Shown piece after piece: positions 57,486 through 64,000 of a stretch of DNA of 64,000 nt (position 1 is the stretch's first letter; each line of letters opens with the position of its first letter). The stretch is from a phage, in the sequence record PZ496580.1. One strand, written 5' to 3'. The position numbers were made by a program, and so were the translations under genes. Under the pieces are notes generated by a model. It ran no database searches. It saw only the letters and a program-made list of their open reading frames with translations, and was not told the origin of the DNA.

Positions 57486-57815
57486 TTAAATCAGTTTAAA
57501 GAAGTTTTCGTTTACATTTTCTTCGGTGATTGCTGTCTTAAATTCTTGACCGTTATCCGGTGTGATGAAATAACGGTCAGAATAATCACGAAAACGTTTT
57601 AAGTGAGATACTCCAACATTAACACCATTTTCCCAGAAACGAAAGGTAATCATTTTTGGTTCATATCGATAGTCGCTGGTTAACACAGTACCATCACCGC
57701 GACGGGCTTCATAAACCGTAATACACTCACGATTAGCGGCTTTAAGGCATTCTTCAATAGTGCCGCACGAGATAATACTTACTGTTTCATCTACGATTTG
57801 TTCTACTGTCCACAT
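57486..57815 (-). CDS. Hypothetical protein (109 aa)
   Basis: ORF behind promoter cassette 57847-57874. Confidence 0.45.
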   Translation of the reverse strand: MWTVEQIVDETVSIISCGTIEECLKAANRECITVYEARRGDGTVLTSDYRYEPKMITFRFWENGVNVGVSHLKRFRDYSDRYFITPDNGQEFKTAITEENVNENFFKLI

Positions 57816-57846
57816 AATATAATCCTCTCTTTGTTTCGATGTTTGT

Positions 57847-57874
57847 ATTATACATCATCTGTATTCGGTGTCAA
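57847..57874 (-). promoter_or_regulatory. Early promoter cassette (variant)
   Basis: TTGACA-N16-TATAAT. Confidence 0.5.
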
Positions 57875-58200
57875 CCTTTTTGTTCCATGAAAAGCGGTGC
57901 TGTTTCTTCTTTCAGTTTGATAACTAGCGCGGAAACTTCATCAAGAAAATCTTTTTCCATATGAGCAAGCATTGATTTAGAATCTTTGATGACTTTCAAA
58001 GAATATTCACTTAGATTTCCTTTTCCTAACAATAATGCGGGATACACACTATGTGGGATCTCGATTTCGTGATATTCGCTCATAGTATAATATTTGTGAA
58101 TTTTTAAATCTATATTTCTTCGTTGTACGTCTACATCAGCAATGACATACAGAAGTTCGATTTTATCACTTTTCTGGGAAAGGGTAGCATTCAAAAACAT
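57871..58200 (-). CDS. Hypothetical protein (109 aa)
   Basis: ORF behind promoter cassette 58230-58258. Confidence 0.45.
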   Translation of the reverse strand: MFLNATLSQKSDKIELLYVIADVDVQRRNIDLKIHKYYTMSEYHEIEIPHSVYPALLLGKGNLSEYSLKVIKDSKSMLAHMEKDFLDEVSALVIKLKEETAPLFMEQKG

Positions 58201-58229
58201 TGTTAATCCTCCGTTGTTTCGATGCTTGT

Positions 58230-58258
58230 ATTATACAACCTCATCTCAGCATGTCAAT
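58230..58258 (-). promoter_or_regulatory. Early promoter cassette (variant)
   Basis: TTGACA-N17-TATAAT. Confidence 0.55.
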
Positions 58259-58319: not shown

Positions 58320-59288
58320 TTACATCGCTAACAGAGAGTCCAGGTCATCCAGATCAGAAGCGGAGGAAGTACCGCCACCCAGATCCAGTGATGCCATCAG
58401 GTCATCAGCGGAAGAATCTGACGCCGTGCTAGCTGCGTTAATACCAACTACAGTGCTAGCTGCGGTAATACCAGAATCGAATGCATTTAAAGCAGCGTCA
58501 AAATCGTCAAGCTGGCTGTTAATCGCTGCCGCAGCACTGGAAGCCGCAGCACCAGCTACCATAGAAACACCCATAGTTTTCTTAAATTTGGTTTCCAGTT
58601 CGTCAAACGGTTTAAACTGGCTAGGCGCTACAATCTCGCCCAGATCAACCATGTTTTCCATCAGATATTTCTGATATGCTTCGTCTTCAATTTTCGGAAG
58701 CTGTGATTGCTGCATGAAACGAGAATCATCATAGTTCTGGTGTTTATCAACTTTCTTAGCTTTCAGGAGGAAGTTAGAACCGGAGAACACACAAGTTACA
58801 TCTACCGGAACTTCGCCCATGTCGGTATTCACGTTCACCATTGCAACGATCTTATCATAAATTTTCTGACCGAAGCGGAATTTGAATACCTTACCTTCAT
58901 TTTCTGGTGCTTGAGGATCTTTCAGTACCAGAATATTTGCGTAGTAAGACGCTTTACGCTTAATCAGTTGCCATTCGGTTTTATCGGTATTGTACAGGTC
59001 TTTTTCGTTAATATATTTGCACACAGGGCAAGAATCAAAATCACCGTGGGTGCTGGAGCAGTTTTCCCAATACCATTTACCATTAACTTTGAAGGAATGG
59101 TTTACCAGTTTCACAATCGGCAGACCGTCTTCTGTCTTAGACGGCAGGAAGCGAATCAGGGCTTCACCGTTACCCGCTGCATCAGTCTTAATCTTCCACT
59201 CTTTCGGATCTTCTTTGGAGAAACCGTTGCCACCTTTCAGTGCGGCCAGTTGAGCTTGCAGTTTGGAAGAATCTTGGCGTTTAAACAT
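58320..59288 (-). CDS. 32: Single-stranded DNA-binding protein (gp32)
   Basis: IRFLPSK ... [14 protein letters not shown] zinc motif; acidic Ser/Ala/Asp-rich C-terminus; start at MFKRQD. Confidence 0.9.
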
Positions 59289-59348: not shown

Positions 59349-60029
59349 TCAACTATTTGTTTCGGCTTTTAATTGAGATATTTCTTTACACTCTTTAACT
59401 ACTTTAACAAATAATGCTCTTGCTTTTGCGGCGTCAATAACAAGTAGTTTCTTGTACGCCTTCATTTTAACACTATAAGTTTGCCAAATCAAGTCTTTGG
59501 CTACCTTGTCGTGTTCGTCGATTATATTTAGAAAGCTATCTAACAACATAAACGACTCAAACGATATAATCCGATTTTGCAGTAGTTTAAAGATACCGCT
59601 AGTTTCGGTTGCGGGATTGTATGTAATTAGCTCTTTAAGAGTAACCCCGCGTTTCTCGGAGAAGTATACCAGACTTTTAATGTCATCGTCAAATCTTGTT
59701 GCTGCATCGGTTATCTTTCCTATGTATTCCATATAAAAGCCGTATGCGTCAACATCAGTGATTTCACCTACCCATGCATCGGTATTAGCTACCAGATTGC
59801 TTAGGAATAGGAAGTATAATTCTCTTAGATTGTACTTTTCCGCTAATTTCGCGAAATAATACTTATCTCTGCGTTTATTGAATGCGGCATCAGACAACCG
59901 CATCCTCCAATTGTATTTTACGCAATCATAACGCCCGTTCATATGAGCTTTCATCATGCAATATAACATATACACAGATTTAGCATTAATTCGCATATCT
60001 GGATCTGGAGGAAGACGGTTTCTGATCAT
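59349..60029 (-). CDS. 59: Helicase loader (gp59)
   Basis: GKSVY.LY.M.K.HMNG.YD..KYNW.MR.SDAA..KRRDKY.F.KL.EKY matches T4 gp59. Confidence 0.85.
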   Translation of the reverse strand: MIRNRLPPDPDMRINAKSVYMLYCMMKAHMNGRYDCVKYNWRMRLSDAAFNKRRDKYYFAKLAEKYNLRELYFLFLSNLVANTDAWVGEITDVDAYGFYMEYIGKITDAATRFDDDIKSLVYFSEKRGVTLKELITYNPATETSGIFKLLQNRIISFESFMLLDSFLNIIDEHDKVAKDLIWQTYSVKMKAYKKLLVIDAAKARALFVKVVKECKEISQLKAETNS

Positions 60030-60038
60030 ACATACCCC

Positions 60039-60293
60039 TTAAATATCGAGAGTGTTGGTCGGTTCGTCGATCACTCCCTTCCTGAGCGTTCTATTTACTA
60101 TACATTCTTGTGTGATCTTGTCAATAATGGACACCGGAATATACTTCTGATAGTGACCATATTCGATAGAGTTTTCCTCTACAAACTGCGTTGTCGCTTC
60201 AAGATAAGTCAATCCCTCTTCAACAACCAGTTTTTCGATTGCAAGACCGTTTGCTGTTTTGTTCGCGGCTTTTACCGCATGTTCATTAAGCAT
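60039..60293 (-). CDS. 33: Late transcription accessory protein (gp33)
   Basis: YLEATT.F.EENSI and C-terminal TNTLD match T4 gp33; start at second ATG. Confidence 0.65.
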   Translation of the reverse strand: MLNEHAVKAANKTANGLAIEKLVVEEGLTYLEATTQFVEENSIEYGHYQKYIPVSIIDKITQECIVNRTLRKGVIDEPTNTLDI

Positions 60294-60561
60294 TGAACAC
60301 CCGATCATAGAGTTCTACTGCCTCGTCGCGTTCTGCTTCGAAAGTTTCGCGCTGTTGTTGGTGATACAGTTTAAACAGAATGCCCCACATTTTACCGTCT
60401 ACGCCTAATTCTTCTTTAGCACGCTGCTTGATCTCTTTGATCTTATCGCCATATGCTTCTTGAATGGTTTTCTGATCGCTGGCTTCTTTAATCAGTTGTG
60501 CCAGGGTATTTCCGTGCACTGCTTCGTCAAATACTACTTTTTCTTTTTTCTGTTCAGTCAT
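60286..60561 (-). CDS. dsbA: dsDNA-binding protein (DsbA-like)
   Basis: 91 aa; position between 33 and rnh as in T4. Confidence 0.55.
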   Translation of the reverse strand: MTEQKKEKVVFDEAVHGNTLAQLIKEASDQKTIQEAYGDKIKEIKQRAKEELGVDGKMWGILFKLYHQQQRETFEAERDEAVELYDRVFNA

Positions 60562-60565
60562 AATA

Positions 60566-61165
60566 TTAACCCTCTTTAGTCATTAATTGAAAACCACGTT
60601 CAGCTTTTGAGATTTCGCTAGGACTTAAATCGTCACCCACATATTCTAGCATCATTTCTCGGATAATGTCAAGTGCTTTTTCATCACCTGATTTTAACTC
60701 GAACTCAAGTTCATAGTGAGCAACATCACCAATTGATTCACCAAATTTGCCATAGTAGAACGTGTCTTTGCACATTTCAACTATACCACATCCCATATCT
60801 AGAGTCAATGCCTTGCGATATGTCAATACTTGCAATCGAGGAATGACATGGTCTGAGTTTACGCCTAGACTATCAACATAATGATCAAAATCATCCCATT
60901 TTGAAAATGTCATCTCCTCTCGGTTGAATAGCCCAGATTCAGCACTTCCTACTTTGACCATGACCAATGATCTGTTAAAGTCAAGTCGTGCATAAATTCC
61001 TTTTTGACGTAACGCATGATCTTCGGTATCATAATAAAATTCGTGTTTTAATATGTTATCTCGGTCTACGAGATTGTACCCGTCATACATTGCTACCCAC
61101 AAATCACAGATGGTTTCGACGCCAATTTGTGAGTGTGCATAGTATTTTAATTCAAGTTCTTTCAT
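60566..61165 (-). CDS. CYTH-like (triphosphate tunnel metalloenzyme-like) protein
   Basis: N-terminal ELELKY (ExExK), central FYYDTED ... LRQKGIYARL, C-terminal HYELEFEL acidic beta-strand motifs; absent at this position in T4. Confidence 0.5.
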   Translation of the reverse strand: MKELELKYYAHSQIGVETICDLWVAMYDGYNLVDRDNILKHEFYYDTEDHALRQKGIYARLDFNRSLVMVKVGSAESGLFNREEMTFSKWDDFDHYVDSLGVNSDHVIPRLQVLTYRKALTLDMGCGIVEMCKDTFYYGKFGESIGDVAHYELEFELKSGDEKALDIIREMMLEYVGDDLSPSEISKAERGFQLMTKEG

Positions 61166-61175
61166 ATGTCAACCC

Positions 61176-62123
61176 TTAGAACTCACCAATTTTCTGCAAC
61201 ATTTTAACTAACGCATTTGTTACAAAATAGTTATAAATTTTACCGCGTGGTGCTGGTTTAGATTTTTCCCATGCTAACAAAATTTCATATTCGATGTTAT
61301 CGGGAATAAATTCAAAATCAATAAGTTCGCGGTTTTCGTCAAAACGTCGTGCTTCTTCCTCTGTCATCAAAGACTTTGGATCTTCGGCATCGAAAATTTG
61401 CTCTAACCATTTGGTTGCAATTGGTTTAGCTCGTTCCCCTTCCAGTCGTGAGATAATGAAATCACTACGGCACTTGATAGAAGCTACACCGTCTTTTGCG
61501 TCACCCTTAACACATTTTACCATAAGGTCTTTGTAAGGGCTACCATATTTGCATTTCTTCCATGCTTTCTGTACTGGCGCCCACTGTTTCACGTTTTTGT
61601 ATTTGTGCAACTGTGTGTAGTCACCATCGCCGGAGTTGATCAGCACCTGACGACCTTCTACAGAAAACTTTTTAGTTAGCACAGCGATTATATCATCCGC
61701 TTCAACTTTGTCAACCTTAATAACGTGATAAGGCATGTTCTCTTTAAACTCTTCGGTGATCTTATTGATCGCAGCAAAGATCATCTCCCAATCACGCGGA
61801 TCTGCGTCTCGTTTTTCCTTACGGTTGCGTTTATAGTAAGGTGCGATATCACGTCGCCAGTAACCTTTGCTTGAATCAAAAGCAAGTACAGTAATCGGGT
61901 ATTGCTCTTTGAATTTTGTCATATTATAACGCATGGTGTCAAGAATAAGATGACGGATCATGCCTTCACTAATAGGATCTTCCGGTTTAAAGGTATGAGA
62001 GATAGTAGCAATCATAAGTTGAGACATATCAATCAAATGCACACCTTCCGGTAGTTTATCTTCTGGATCATCAAAAAAATCATTAAGTGTAGCGGTAGTT
62101 TTTGTAAACGGGTTATACGTCAT
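61176..62123 (-). CDS. rnh: RNase H (5'-3' exonuclease)
   Basis: SGDGDYTQLHKY.NVKQW.P ... KGDKKD.VASIK.RSDF ... PPRGKIY.YFV match T4 RNase H. Confidence 0.9.
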   Translation of the reverse strand: MTYNPFTKTTATLNDFFDDPEDKLPEGVHLIDMSQLMIATISHTFKPEDPISEGMIRHLILDTMRYNMTKFKEQYPITVLAFDSSKGYWRRDIAPYYKRNRKEKRDADPRDWEMIFAAINKITEEFKENMPYHVIKVDKVEADDIIAVLTKKFSVEGRQVLINSGDGDYTQLHKYKNVKQWAPVQKAWKKCKYGSPYKDLMVKCVKGDAKDGVASIKCRSDFIISRLEGERAKPIATKWLEQIFDAEDPKSLMTEEEARRFDENRELIDFEFIPDNIEYEILLAWEKSKPAPRGKIYNYFVTNALVKMLQKIGEF

Positions 62124-62125
62124 AA

Positions 62126-62311
62126 TTAAGTTCTCTCCACTCTCACAACAACATATTCGCCAAACGAGTTAGATACTTCACGATCATACCCGTATTTCTC
62201 CATAACTCGCAGAATTGCATTGTTTAATTCGGCACGGAAATAATTGTAATCCTTATCTGGGATTCTGTCAACTATCCATTTTGCACCGTCTGACAAATCA
62301 ACTTTAACCAT
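62126..62311 (-). CDS. Hypothetical protein (61 aa)
   Basis: Small ORF immediately upstream of rnh. Confidence 0.4.
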   Translation of the reverse strand: MVKVDLSDGAKWIVDRIPDKDYNYFRAELNNAILRVMEKYGYDREVSNSFGEYVVVRVERT

Positions 62312-62349
62312 AATATATCATCCTCTTTTGTTTCTATCAAGCCTTATTT

Positions 62350-62357
62350 TATAAATA
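62350..62357 (+). promoter_or_regulatory. Late promoter TATAAATA upstream of gene 34
   Basis: Exact TATAAATA 29 nt upstream of ATG 62386; SD AAGGAGA. Confidence 0.5.
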
Positions 62358-62385
62358 TGAACATACTATAAAAGGAGACCCAATA

Positions 62386-64000
62386 ATGGCAGATTTTTCT
62401 CAACATTTCAAGGCCACATTTGGCTTTGACGCTGGTAATGAAAAGGTCGTCAATGTAGCATTGGCTGATAAGAATGTCAACACCGATGCGGTCAACGTTG
62501 AATTTTTCAATTACCATAATGGTATTACTCAGTATGACACAACTCGCGGTTATGATCAATACGGAACTACAATCTATCAAAACCGCCCGTATTATGCAAA
62601 AGAAGATATCACAAAGCCAGCAGGTGATTTTGACCCGACTAAATGGCAAGCACTGCGCACGGACCCACGTTGGGATTATATTGCAGCAACTTCCGGTGAT
62701 ACTCCTTTAAAGTCTGGTGATTATATCGCAGCAGATGGTCAATTTGCAAACTTGACTTTCTCTATGCCAAATAAACCAGCAGAGGGAGACACTATAACAG
62801 TAAAAGATATCGGTGGCAAGTGTGGTGTTAACGAATTATCGTTCTTGAGTTCAGGACATGAGTTTTACCATAACGGTAATGTGTATAACCGCAAATGGTA
62901 TTGCACTACCCCGTATGCAATGAACTATTTCATCTTTGTTCGTAATCGTTGGCATGTTTATCAGACGGGAACAGAGCCACGCGGTGTGTACGCACAACCA
63001 GCGATTGATGCTATTCAAATGCAGAATGGTGATCAGGTATTTCGTCGTAGTTCGTTGGGTAATATTACCTTAGTGCTTCCTAAGTTTGCCAACAATGGCG
63101 ACATGATCCAAACTACAGATCTTGACGGGTTAACCGCAACCAACCACGTTACGGTTAAAGTTCATGAGCACGCAGAAGAACAATCAATTGGCACGTTCGG
63201 TCTAAAAGAGATTATCGGTAAGCGTAGCGGTCATGGTGTATTCATCTTTGACAAGCCGGAAAACTTATGGCGTGTGTGGGATGGTGATCAGTCTGTTCGT
63301 CTTAAACCGATCATCGATGACACTCGCTTGCAACCTAATAGCTATGTTGCTGTATTTGGTGATCATGATGTTACTCTGACGCTGCCGACCAATGTCGAGC
63401 CGGGTGATCGTATTCAAGTTTCTATGCAGTATATGCACGGAAACCAGAATTGCCGTATTATCACCGCCGCAGAGGATACAAAAATCCTTATGCAGAAAAA
63501 TATGGTTCAGTTTCCTAAGCGTAGCGAGTACCCATTCAACGGGACCGAGACATGGAAGGAAGTGTCTGAATTGTCGTTCAATGCGGCTAGTGATTATGTA
63601 CCTTATCTGGAGTTCTCTTATTCAGAAGGTGATGATGGTAAGAAACATTGGCTGGTAGCACACTCTCATCCGATCGTCGAACGAGTAGACCCTACTCGTA
63701 AAGAGCGTGTTGGTGTAATTGCACTGGCTACCCAGACTGAAACGAATAAAAACCATGAAGAGAATCCTAGCGACGAAGTTGCAGTAACACCAAAAATGCT
63801 GGCTAATAAAACCGCCAACGAAACTCGACGCGGTATTGCTCGTATTGCTACTCAGGCGGAAACGCATCAAGATACTGGTTCCAGCTTCCTGGATGATGTT
63901 ATCGTTACACCTAAAAAGTTAAATGACTGTGTTGCTACCGAAGCCCGTCGTGGTGTGATGGAAATTGCAACCCAGCACGAAACCAATGAAGGTTTAGATG
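62386..64000 (+). CDS. 34: Long tail fibre proximal subunit (gp34), 3' end outside window
   Basis: KVVNVALADKNV, FPKRSEYP, ERVDPTRKERVGVIALATQ, ETRRGIARIATQ, TPKKLND match T4 gp34; no stop before window end. Confidence 0.85.
   Translation, partial: MADFSQHFKATFGFDAGNEKVVNVALADKNVNTDAVNVEFFNYHNGITQYDTTRGYDQYGTTIYQNRPYYAKEDITKPAGDFDPTKWQALRTDPRWDYIAATSGDTPLKSGDYIAADGQFANLTFSMPNKPAEGDTITVKDIGGKCGVNELSFLSSGHEFYHNGNVYNRKWYCTTPYAMNYFIFVRNRWHVYQTGTEPRGVYAQPAIDAIQMQNGDQVFRRSSLGNITLVLPKFANNGDMIQTTDLDGLTATNHVTVKVHEHAEEQSIGTFGLKEIIGKRSGHGVFIFDKPENLWRVWDGDQSVRLKPIIDDTRLQPNSYVAVFGDHDVTLTLPTNVEPGDRIQVSMQYMHGNQNCRIITAAEDTKILMQKNMVQFPKRSEYPFNGTETWKEVSELSFNAASDYVPYLEFSYSEGDDGKKHWLVAHSHPIVERVDPTRKERVGVIALATQTETNKNHEENPSDEVAVTPKMLANKTANETRRGIARIATQAETHQDTGSSFLDDVIVTPKKLNDCVATEARRGVMEIATQHETNEGLD

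Follow-up and report, generated by a model that had tools for sequence, protein, structure and literature searches.

Between the T4-type genes rnh and dsbA, the 64,000-nucleotide phage sequence analyzed here (record PZ496580.1, in its whole length referred to as the window) carries a gene of the CYTH superfamily, the orthologue of RB49ORF244c, at positions 60566..61165 on the minus strand. We conclude that the product of this gene is probably a triphosphate tunnel metalloenzyme (TTM) of the YgiF-like branch, stand-alone and catalytically competent, that the enzyme would act as a phosphohydrolase as opposed to a cyclase by a mechanism drawn from its homologs, and that the gene entered its present position as an old, lineage-specific insertion. 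Membership of the protein in the CYTH/TTM superfamily, and within it in the YgiF-like branch, appears secure from profile comparisons, and by analogy with characterized relatives TTM-hydrolase-type chemistry is very likely.

The original prediction had placed an open reading frame (ORF) of 199 amino acids at exactly these coordinates, with an N-terminal ExExK motif and a C-terminal ExExE strand. Reading the window returned the same ORF, which is initiated by ATG and comprises 199 codons plus a stop; the protein begins with MKELELKYY (E3-x-E5-x-K7) and carries HYELEFELKSGD (E152-x-E154-x-E156) in its C-terminal part. A gap of 10 nt separates it from the preceding rnh stop, and one of 4 nt from the dsbA start that comes next. 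Along the coding strand, GGGTTGACAT lies between the rnh stop codon TAA (61178..61176) and the ATG (61165..61163), and a Shine-Dalgarno-like AAGGG, read directly from the sequence, is located 8-12 nt before the ATG (61173..61177, minus strand), where it overlaps the rnh stop codon. The protein matches PHROG 14893 (E = 9e-126), a family without known function. Because of this match, the presence of the gene in all 59 Krischvirus records described below and a ratio of nonsynonymous to synonymous divergence (dN/dS, or omega) below 1, the ORF is a genuine gene, not a product of chance.

Single-sequence searches gave weak signals. Pfam CYTH (PF01928) scored 23.6 bits, marginally over its gathering score of 23.2 (E = 5e-5), a search of the PDB returned YgiF alone (E = 0.44), and searches of the window protein against NCBIfam and against the defense proteins of PADLOC gave no match; profiles were therefore needed. 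A profile built from a 15-sequence alignment (phage+1) matched bacterial CYTH proteins of ~200 amino acids at E values of 1e-46 to 1e-15, and had 3322 matches in an exhaustive search of a representative library. When a phage-only profile was compared with the PDB, the single match was the Escherichia coli inorganic triphosphatase YgiF, over the full length (2.9e-5), and hhalign aligned the phage-only profile to a bacterial-only profile with a probability of 99.7% (E = 1.8e-25). AlphaFold2 produced a model with a mean predicted local distance difference test (pLDDT) score of 94.8 and a predicted template modeling (pTM) score of 0.88, in which eight long strands are followed by a C-terminal helix (residues 187-197), a predicted fold that corresponds to the eight-stranded antiparallel β-barrel tunnel of the CYTH/TTM superfamily. 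Foldseek ranked YgiF first among structures similar to this model (template modeling (TM) score 0.77, E = 2e-12). The CYTH identity suggested in the original prediction, for which a profile comparison and a structure prediction had been proposed as checks, is thus borne out by the Pfam score and by both of these approaches.

The residues expected to carry out catalysis are all in place. Across 74 phage and bacterial sequences, E3, E5, K7, R60, R82, E84, R117, E152, E154, E156 and K187 are invariant, and their roles can be read from a structure-function study of YgiF, AtTTM3 and thiamine triphosphatase (ThTPase) (PMC4641920). The ExExK hallmark is formed by codons 3-7, E-L-E-L-K (61145..61159, minus strand), in which E3 and E5 correspond to YgiF E4 and E6 of metal site 2. 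Codons 152-156, E-L-E-F-E (60698..60712, minus strand), supply E154, the counterpart of YgiF E160 in metal site 1, E156, the counterpart of E162 in metal site 2, and E152, which pairs with the lysine of the plug helix. That lysine, K187, lies in the invariant plug-helix segment (60593..60610, minus strand), and together E152 and K187 match the plug-helix pair E167/K200 of AtTTM3. The central arginine R60 is equivalent to the essential R56 of YgiF and belongs to codons 58-62, Y-A-R-L-D (60980..60994, minus strand; motif definitions from PMC8233210 and PMC4641920). Since the invariant residues map to residues of YgiF and AtTTM3 that are essential by experiment, catalytic competence is favored.

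Three GenBank records annotate the gene as an adenylate cyclase, and the original prediction had left room for an enzyme that synthesizes a nucleotide signal, as a class IV (CyaB-type) adenylate or nucleotide cyclase would do to make a cyclic messenger. A study of SaTTM (PMC8233210) describes class IV cyclases as marked by an HF motif four residues before ExExK, a small residue in place of the central arginine, and ExA in place of ExE. The phage protein has only two residues (M-K) before E3, which leaves no room for an HF motif, and R60 and E154-F-E156 are kept in all phage sequences, so that neither the small central residue nor the alanine is present. In addition, the cyaB equivalog model of NCBIfam, TIGR00318, gave no match to the window protein at E ≤ 1. 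With all three diagnostics failing and TIGR00318 unmatched, a hydrolase with the two-metal TTM mechanism is expected, a cyclase is very improbable, and the cyclase annotations are wrong and not defensible. "Triphosphate tunnel metalloenzyme / putative triphosphatase" would be a defensible name.

The phage clade also carries a distinctive set of pocket residues, identified by aligning 43 phage-clade sequences with about 215 bacterial relatives. Where the relatives have L at position 40, N or S at 42, A or G at 58, R at 62, H or S at 80, F at 115 and I or L at 150, the phage clade has K, E, Y, D, F, T and H, respectively. These changes form a signature that is exclusive to the clade, essentially fixed and in strand register with the catalytic residues. 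Y58-A-R60-L-D62 is found in 41-42 of 42 phage sequences, as compared to A/G-x-R-x-R in the ~215 bacterial relatives and G54-L-R56-I-R58 in YgiF; the small residue before the catalytic arginine and the canonical RxR on strand 3, which are typical of YgiF, are therefore both absent. Y58 is not absolute, being S in one allele and V in P0121, a divergent phage allele. K71 initially seemed to be another clade-specific change and was discarded, since the hmmsearch alignment was shifted and hhalign pairs K71 with a conserved bacterial lysine. Y58-x-R60 sits at the position of the W53-x-R55 motif of ThTPase, whose tryptophan stacks against the thiazole ring of the substrate (PMC4641920, PMC8233210), and an aromatic residue at this position is otherwise restricted to ThTPases and plant TTM1/2, all other clusters having a small residue (PMC8233210). 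The pocket thus differs from those of the bacterial relatives at fixed positions, in a way that published rules for TTMs tie to recognition of an organic moiety.

From homology to YgiF, AtTTM3 and ThTPase we propose the following mechanism. A complex of triphosphate with Mg2+ or Mn2+ would bind in the β-barrel tunnel, its phosphates contacted by K7, K71, R82, R117, K158, K187 and R190. E154 would complete metal site 1, and the second metal, held by E3, E5 and E156, would activate a water molecule for attack on the terminal (γ) phosphate, with R60 assisting the leaving group. The expected products are inorganic phosphate and the diphosphate form of the substrate. By nearest homology that substrate would be inorganic triphosphate (PPPi), for which YgiF is specific: it is slow on thiamine triphosphate and does not hydrolyze ATP, GTP, ITP, pyrophosphate or polyphosphate. 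Because the pocket has been re-tooled and fixed at Y58, K40, E42, H150 and, by the change from R to D, position 62, an organic triphosphate of the nucleoside, thiamine or 5′-triphosphate type seems about as likely as plain PPPi.

The insertion itself can be followed across related phages. A 3.1-kb region of the window is 96-97% identical to 59 phage records, all of them Krischvirus (the genus of RB49, JSE, GEC-3S and Phi1), and the window is therefore from a Krischvirus, or RB49-like, phage. A tblastn search of a 50,697-record phage collection with the CYTH protein matched the same 59 records and no phage outside them, and all 59 carry the gene between rnh and dsbA. Scanning IMG/VR with a family profile added just three further loci, near-identical and of Krischvirus. 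Most records label the product "hypothetical protein", in addition to the three with "adenylate cyclase" and two with "inorganic triphosphatase". The sole exception to an intact gene is MK327935.1 (vB_EcoM_G2494), where the match falls into two pieces annotated as two hypothetical proteins; this split may be a frameshift, arising either from a sequencing error or in a real pseudogene.

In T4, as the original prediction had stated, dsbA and rnh are direct neighbors; the two are 8 bp apart, and Bragavirus, Dhakavirus, Karamvirus, Biquartavirus, Acinetobacter phage 133 and Slopekvirus likewise have a direct junction of 7-10 bp. The slot between rnh and dsbA holds alleles that span 37-95% identity, among them those of Skers (60%) and of two further divergent loci, P0042 (57%) and P0043 (47%). 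The most distant allele, P0121 (37%), is on a short contig that shows only its position directly upstream of dsbA. Because T4 and six other genera have the direct junction and divergent alleles occupy the same slot, we regard the gene as an old, lineage-specific insertion into the core replication/late-transcription block, at a junction that does not otherwise vary. It is the only insertion other than endonuclease genes that we saw in the rnh-dsbA-33-59-32 core among eight Straboviridae lineages.

Conservation along the gene is uneven. In a sliding comparison of the window with six Krischvirus loci (seven genomes in all), codons ~9-150 (60716..61141, minus strand) form a divergence island with median pairwise nucleotide identities of 84-87%, and of 51-56% for Skers, and the seven genomes fall into at least four allele groups across this cassette. 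The neighbors gp32, gp59, gp33/dsbA and rnh, as well as the last 150 nt of the CYTH gene, are 96-99% identical, Skers included. This conserved 3′ block (codons 151-199; 60566..60715, minus strand) has 94-100% nucleotide identity in all pairs, again including Skers, and is as conserved as the flanking core genes. Within the island, dS is 0.27-0.57 (saturated for Skers) and dN is 0.08-0.11; tunnel-facing codons have an omega of 0.18 and the other codons of the cassette one of 0.35 (at most 0.61), as compared to 0.06 for codons 150-199. Positive selection as the cause of the island was rejected, given that dS is raised along with dN and omega stays at these low values. Exchange of old alleles by recombination, with a relaxed exterior, appears to fit the cassette pattern better. 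Among 16 non-redundant alleles, 23 of 39 cassette strand positions assigned by strand register to the tunnel interior are invariant, as opposed to 2 of 41 facing outward (Mann-Whitney p ~ 1e-4). Strong purifying selection thus acts on the active site in each allele, an argument for a working enzyme. A gene that is an inert passenger or is decaying without an enzymatic role might also be highly diverse over two thirds of its length and have no known phenotype, as is the case here. Such a gene would not be expected to remain intact across 59 genomes (the split G2494 record aside), to keep its catalytic and tunnel residues invariant in alleles down to 37% identity, or to show an omega of 0.18-0.35. 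The conservation pattern essentially refutes this explanation, which we consider extremely improbable.

Several points weigh against a working TTM phosphohydrolase and temper our confidence in it. The single-sequence Pfam score exceeds its threshold by just 0.4 bits. The likeness of the AlphaFold2 model to YgiF is partly built in, since the underlying alignment included YgiF-like bacterial sequences, and inward and outward residues were called from the strand register of a DSSP string, not from coordinates. What is known of the phage clade comes from sequence and predicted structure. At position 62, an aspartate stands in for the canonical phosphate-binding arginine of 76 of 77 bacterial relatives, which could weaken triphosphate binding; AtTTM3 R54A, altered at the equivalent position, stays active (PMC4641920), and the change of L40 to K on the neighboring strand may compensate the charge, judging from strand pairing. 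Finally, a plain inorganic triphosphatase seems redundant for a phage in E. coli, because pyrophosphatase provides most of the inorganic triphosphatase activity of that host and a ygiF knockout shows no drop, and the benefit to the phage is left unexplained. If the enzyme hydrolyzes PPPi only, it would be a minor metabolic accessory, and the main value of the present analysis would be the correction of database annotations.

We considered several more specific roles, each less likely than a phosphohydrolase of the general kind described above. One is that the Krischvirus clade forms a functionally new TTM subfamily whose re-tooled pocket recognizes an organic triphosphate present in infected cells, such as a messenger of stress or immunity; candidates would be thiamine triphosphate, adenosine-thiamine triphosphate, a (d)NTP signal of non-canonical type or a 5′-triphosphate oligonucleotide intermediate, and the hypervariable, recombining exterior of the protein would reflect pressure from host factors. 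We hold this to be unlikely; if true, it would be the first case of a phage employing a triphosphate tunnel enzyme for host takeover or counter-defense. The original prediction had named the gene a candidate for counter-defense, and nothing found here supports that role. In such a scenario the enzyme would disarm a host system by hydrolyzing a triphosphate-bearing immune messenger or defense product, for example a linear 5′-triphosphate oligonucleotide intermediate, a non-canonical (d)NTP signal or the PPPi released by defensive dNTP triphosphohydrolases. In favor of this, the gene is an accessory one specific to its lineage, and the slot that it occupies does not otherwise vary in Straboviridae; the exterior of the protein is unusually diverse, with alleles exchanged by recombination, its pocket is re-tooled relative to housekeeping relatives, and dNTPase-type defenses that release PPPi exist (preprint). 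However, dNTPs once depleted would not be restored by removing PPPi, exterior codons too have an omega below 1, and mosaic patches also occur in nearby rnh, gp32 and gp34, so that they are not specific to this gene. Moreover, the gene is in the core replication block as opposed to a typical accessory or anti-defense cluster, its closest bacterial relatives are of a housekeeping type and adjoin phosphate-transport genes, and our literature search found no link of CYTH/TTM proteins to anti-defense. Together this makes counter-defense quite unlikely.

A role in the nucleotide pool, where the enzyme would act as an NTP/dNTP γ-phosphohydrolase that removes unmodified or non-canonical nucleotides, has been proposed by Iyer and Aravind for the CYTH and MazG triphosphatases of jumbo phages (PMC7824862). 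Y58 could stack a base, some TTMs (SaTTM, CthTTM) hydrolyze ATP, and the cytosine-modification chemistry of Krischvirus is unresolved, the genus lacking the T4 enzymes. Against this, YgiF, the nearest relative, is inactive on ATP, GTP and ITP, and cleavage of the γ-phosphate yields a (d)NDP that nucleoside-diphosphate kinase would re-charge, making exclusion inefficient. No link to cytosine modification was found: TB34 (canonical C) and SAP (fully modified C), which are 99.96% identical, both have the gene, which therefore does not track modification. We regard this role, too, as unlikely. The last possibility that we weighed is an RNA 5′-triphosphatase acting on triphosphate ends, either of primers destined for the neighboring RNase H or of host mRNAs whose decay would be hastened. 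That the gene abuts rnh in every allele examined speaks for it, however, adjacency in the polycistronic blocks of T4-like phages is weak evidence of a functional link, and T4, like six other genera, gets by without it. Cet1-type enzymes are far more distant than YgiF, and a plug helix at the C terminus, of YgiF/AtTTM3 type, is kept with K187, closing one end of the tunnel. This role is improbable. The substrate specificity of TTMs is poorly predictable. Defining a new substrate for a phage enzyme would contribute one more data point and might uncover a small-molecule triphosphate of relevance to T-even-type infection.

The same-strand neighbors are, in order, a 61-amino-acid ORF, rnh, the CYTH-like ORF, dsbA, gp33, gp59 and gp32, as assigned by Pfam and PHROG (gp33 by Trans_coact). 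Upstream of the CYTH gene, rnh encodes a T4-type RNase H/5′-3′ exonuclease (61176..62123, minus strand; Pfam RNaseH_C, 2.6e-37, and 5_3_exonuc_N, 4.6e-18), and downstream is dsbA (60286..60561, minus strand; Pfam Phage_DsbA, 5.4e-22). The CYTH gene is co-oriented with this early replication/late-transcription block (rnh-CYTH-dsbA-33-59-32), in which it is tightly packed and probably co-transcribed. A σ70-like sequence, TTGACA-18-TAGAAT (60643..60672, minus strand), a match to the consensus only, lies within its conserved 3′ block, ~80 nt before the start of dsbA. It is retained in Krischvirus alleles, and a perfect TTGACA-17-TATAAT occurs close to this position in the divergent locus L026, whereas locus L014 has no comparable σ70-like match. 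The match is a possible early promoter for dsbA-33-59, and a promoter embedded in this way might account for the location of the recombination boundary within the CYTH gene. Such matches are over-represented in 59900..62700 (22 as compared to 8.9 ± 2.9 expected, 16 of the 22 on the coding strand), including a 12/12 consensus match inside rnh at 61714..61687. No late promoter was found near the CYTH gene, as there is no TATAAATA within the block.

The surrounding region has further variable features. The longest gp33 and dsbA ORFs share 23 nt (60286..60308), and public records place the gp33 start at two positions, giving versions of 255 and 270 nt. Homing-endonuclease genes (HNH or segG-like GIY-YIG) are the only insertions other than the CYTH gene seen in the rnh-to-gp32 block; they are located between gp59 and gp32 in Skers (L002, 5802..6398), PSD2002 (L021, 3394..4029) and T4 (L001, 2410..3042), and the window has none at this site. 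On the other side of rnh, the 61-amino-acid ORF (62126..62311, minus strand; PHROG 3594, unknown function) separates rnh from the divergently transcribed tail-fiber gene gp34. All Krischvirus loci examined have it, and in T4 and five other genera it is missing and rnh directly faces gp34; it is thus a second lineage-specific insertion adjoining rnh. A mosaic patch in rnh (61196..61395, minus strand) has 72-79% nucleotide identity to Skers and GEC-3S and 97-99% to the other Krischvirus loci, and a small recombination patch in the C-terminal part of gp32 (58385..58534, minus strand) is 67-72% identical to Ec_Makalu_001 and 94-97% to the others. Gene content directly downstream of gp32 is variable: the gp32-frd interval (57486..58250, minus strand) holds two 109-amino-acid ORFs (57871..58200 and 57486..57815), and over 57800..58250 there is essentially no homology (25-50% identity) to the five typical Krischvirus loci used for comparison.

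The original prediction had presented the gene as a fresh find, however, Nolan et al. tabulated RB49ORF244c with a CYTH-domain hit (E = 0.0026) in 2006 (PMC1524935), and some GenBank records already name a triphosphatase or a cyclase. Full-text literature searches turned up no work on the function of any CYTH/TTM protein of a phage. The gene is an ordinary, uncharacterized member of a known enzyme superfamily, and what is new here is that it is placed securely in the YgiF-like branch, that the cyclase annotation is refuted, and that a clade-specific pocket signature and the structure of the mosaic cassette are described.

Among known systems, the nearest structural match is the N-terminal TTM domain of E. 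coli YgiF (PDB 5a60/5a61), a specific inorganic triphosphatase. YgiF has 433 amino acids and a C-terminal CHAD domain, whereas the phage protein ends after the plug helix at 199 amino acids and lacks CHAD, a form also seen in many of its bacterial relatives. In the pocket, Y58 takes the place of a glycine and D62 that of R58, and K40, E42 and H150 are specific to the phage clade; the plug-helix lysine and the glutamate before ExE, of the AtTTM3 K200/E167 type, are shared by the phage protein as K187 and E152. Recent capture of ygiF, a chromosomal gene of the host, was rejected, since the phage protein is only 24% identical to it and is closest to genes of uncultured gammaproteobacteria (32-34%). 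These stand-alone bacterial CYTH proteins of ~200 amino acids (e.g., P0045) have the same length and architecture and are the group matched by hhalign at 99.7%, and their lineage is the likely source of the phage gene. Unlike the phage protein, they are chromosomal and have the canonical A-x-R-x-R, L40, N42 and I150 in ~215 of 215 relatives. Two of them, P0044 and P0045, are transcribed divergently from genes for a PhoU-like protein and a PHO4-type phosphate transporter, a neighborhood that fits inorganic (poly)phosphate metabolism.

More distant comparisons help to place the phage protein by exclusion. The mammalian 25-kDa ThTPase (PDB 3bhd, 5a64) is ~15% identical and has W/YxRxR where the phage protein has YxRxD, so that the aromatic residue and the central arginine of its motif are present and the last arginine is replaced; the phage protein is closest neither to the ThTPase cluster nor to the clade of Cet1 and viral capping triphosphatases. 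Class IV adenylyl cyclases (CyaB, YpAC-IV) differ in all three of their diagnostic features. Other phage CYTH proteins (Aeh1ORF004c, those of Aeromonas phages 65.2 and D3, and the jumbo-phage triphosphatases) are scattered in large myoviruses, have unknown functions and occupy different genome positions. They were missed by tblastn with the Krischvirus protein and are structurally remote, with TM scores in BFVD of at most 0.54 as compared to 0.95 for Krischvirus orthologues. Their remoteness and their different locations point to independent acquisitions of CYTH proteins by phages.

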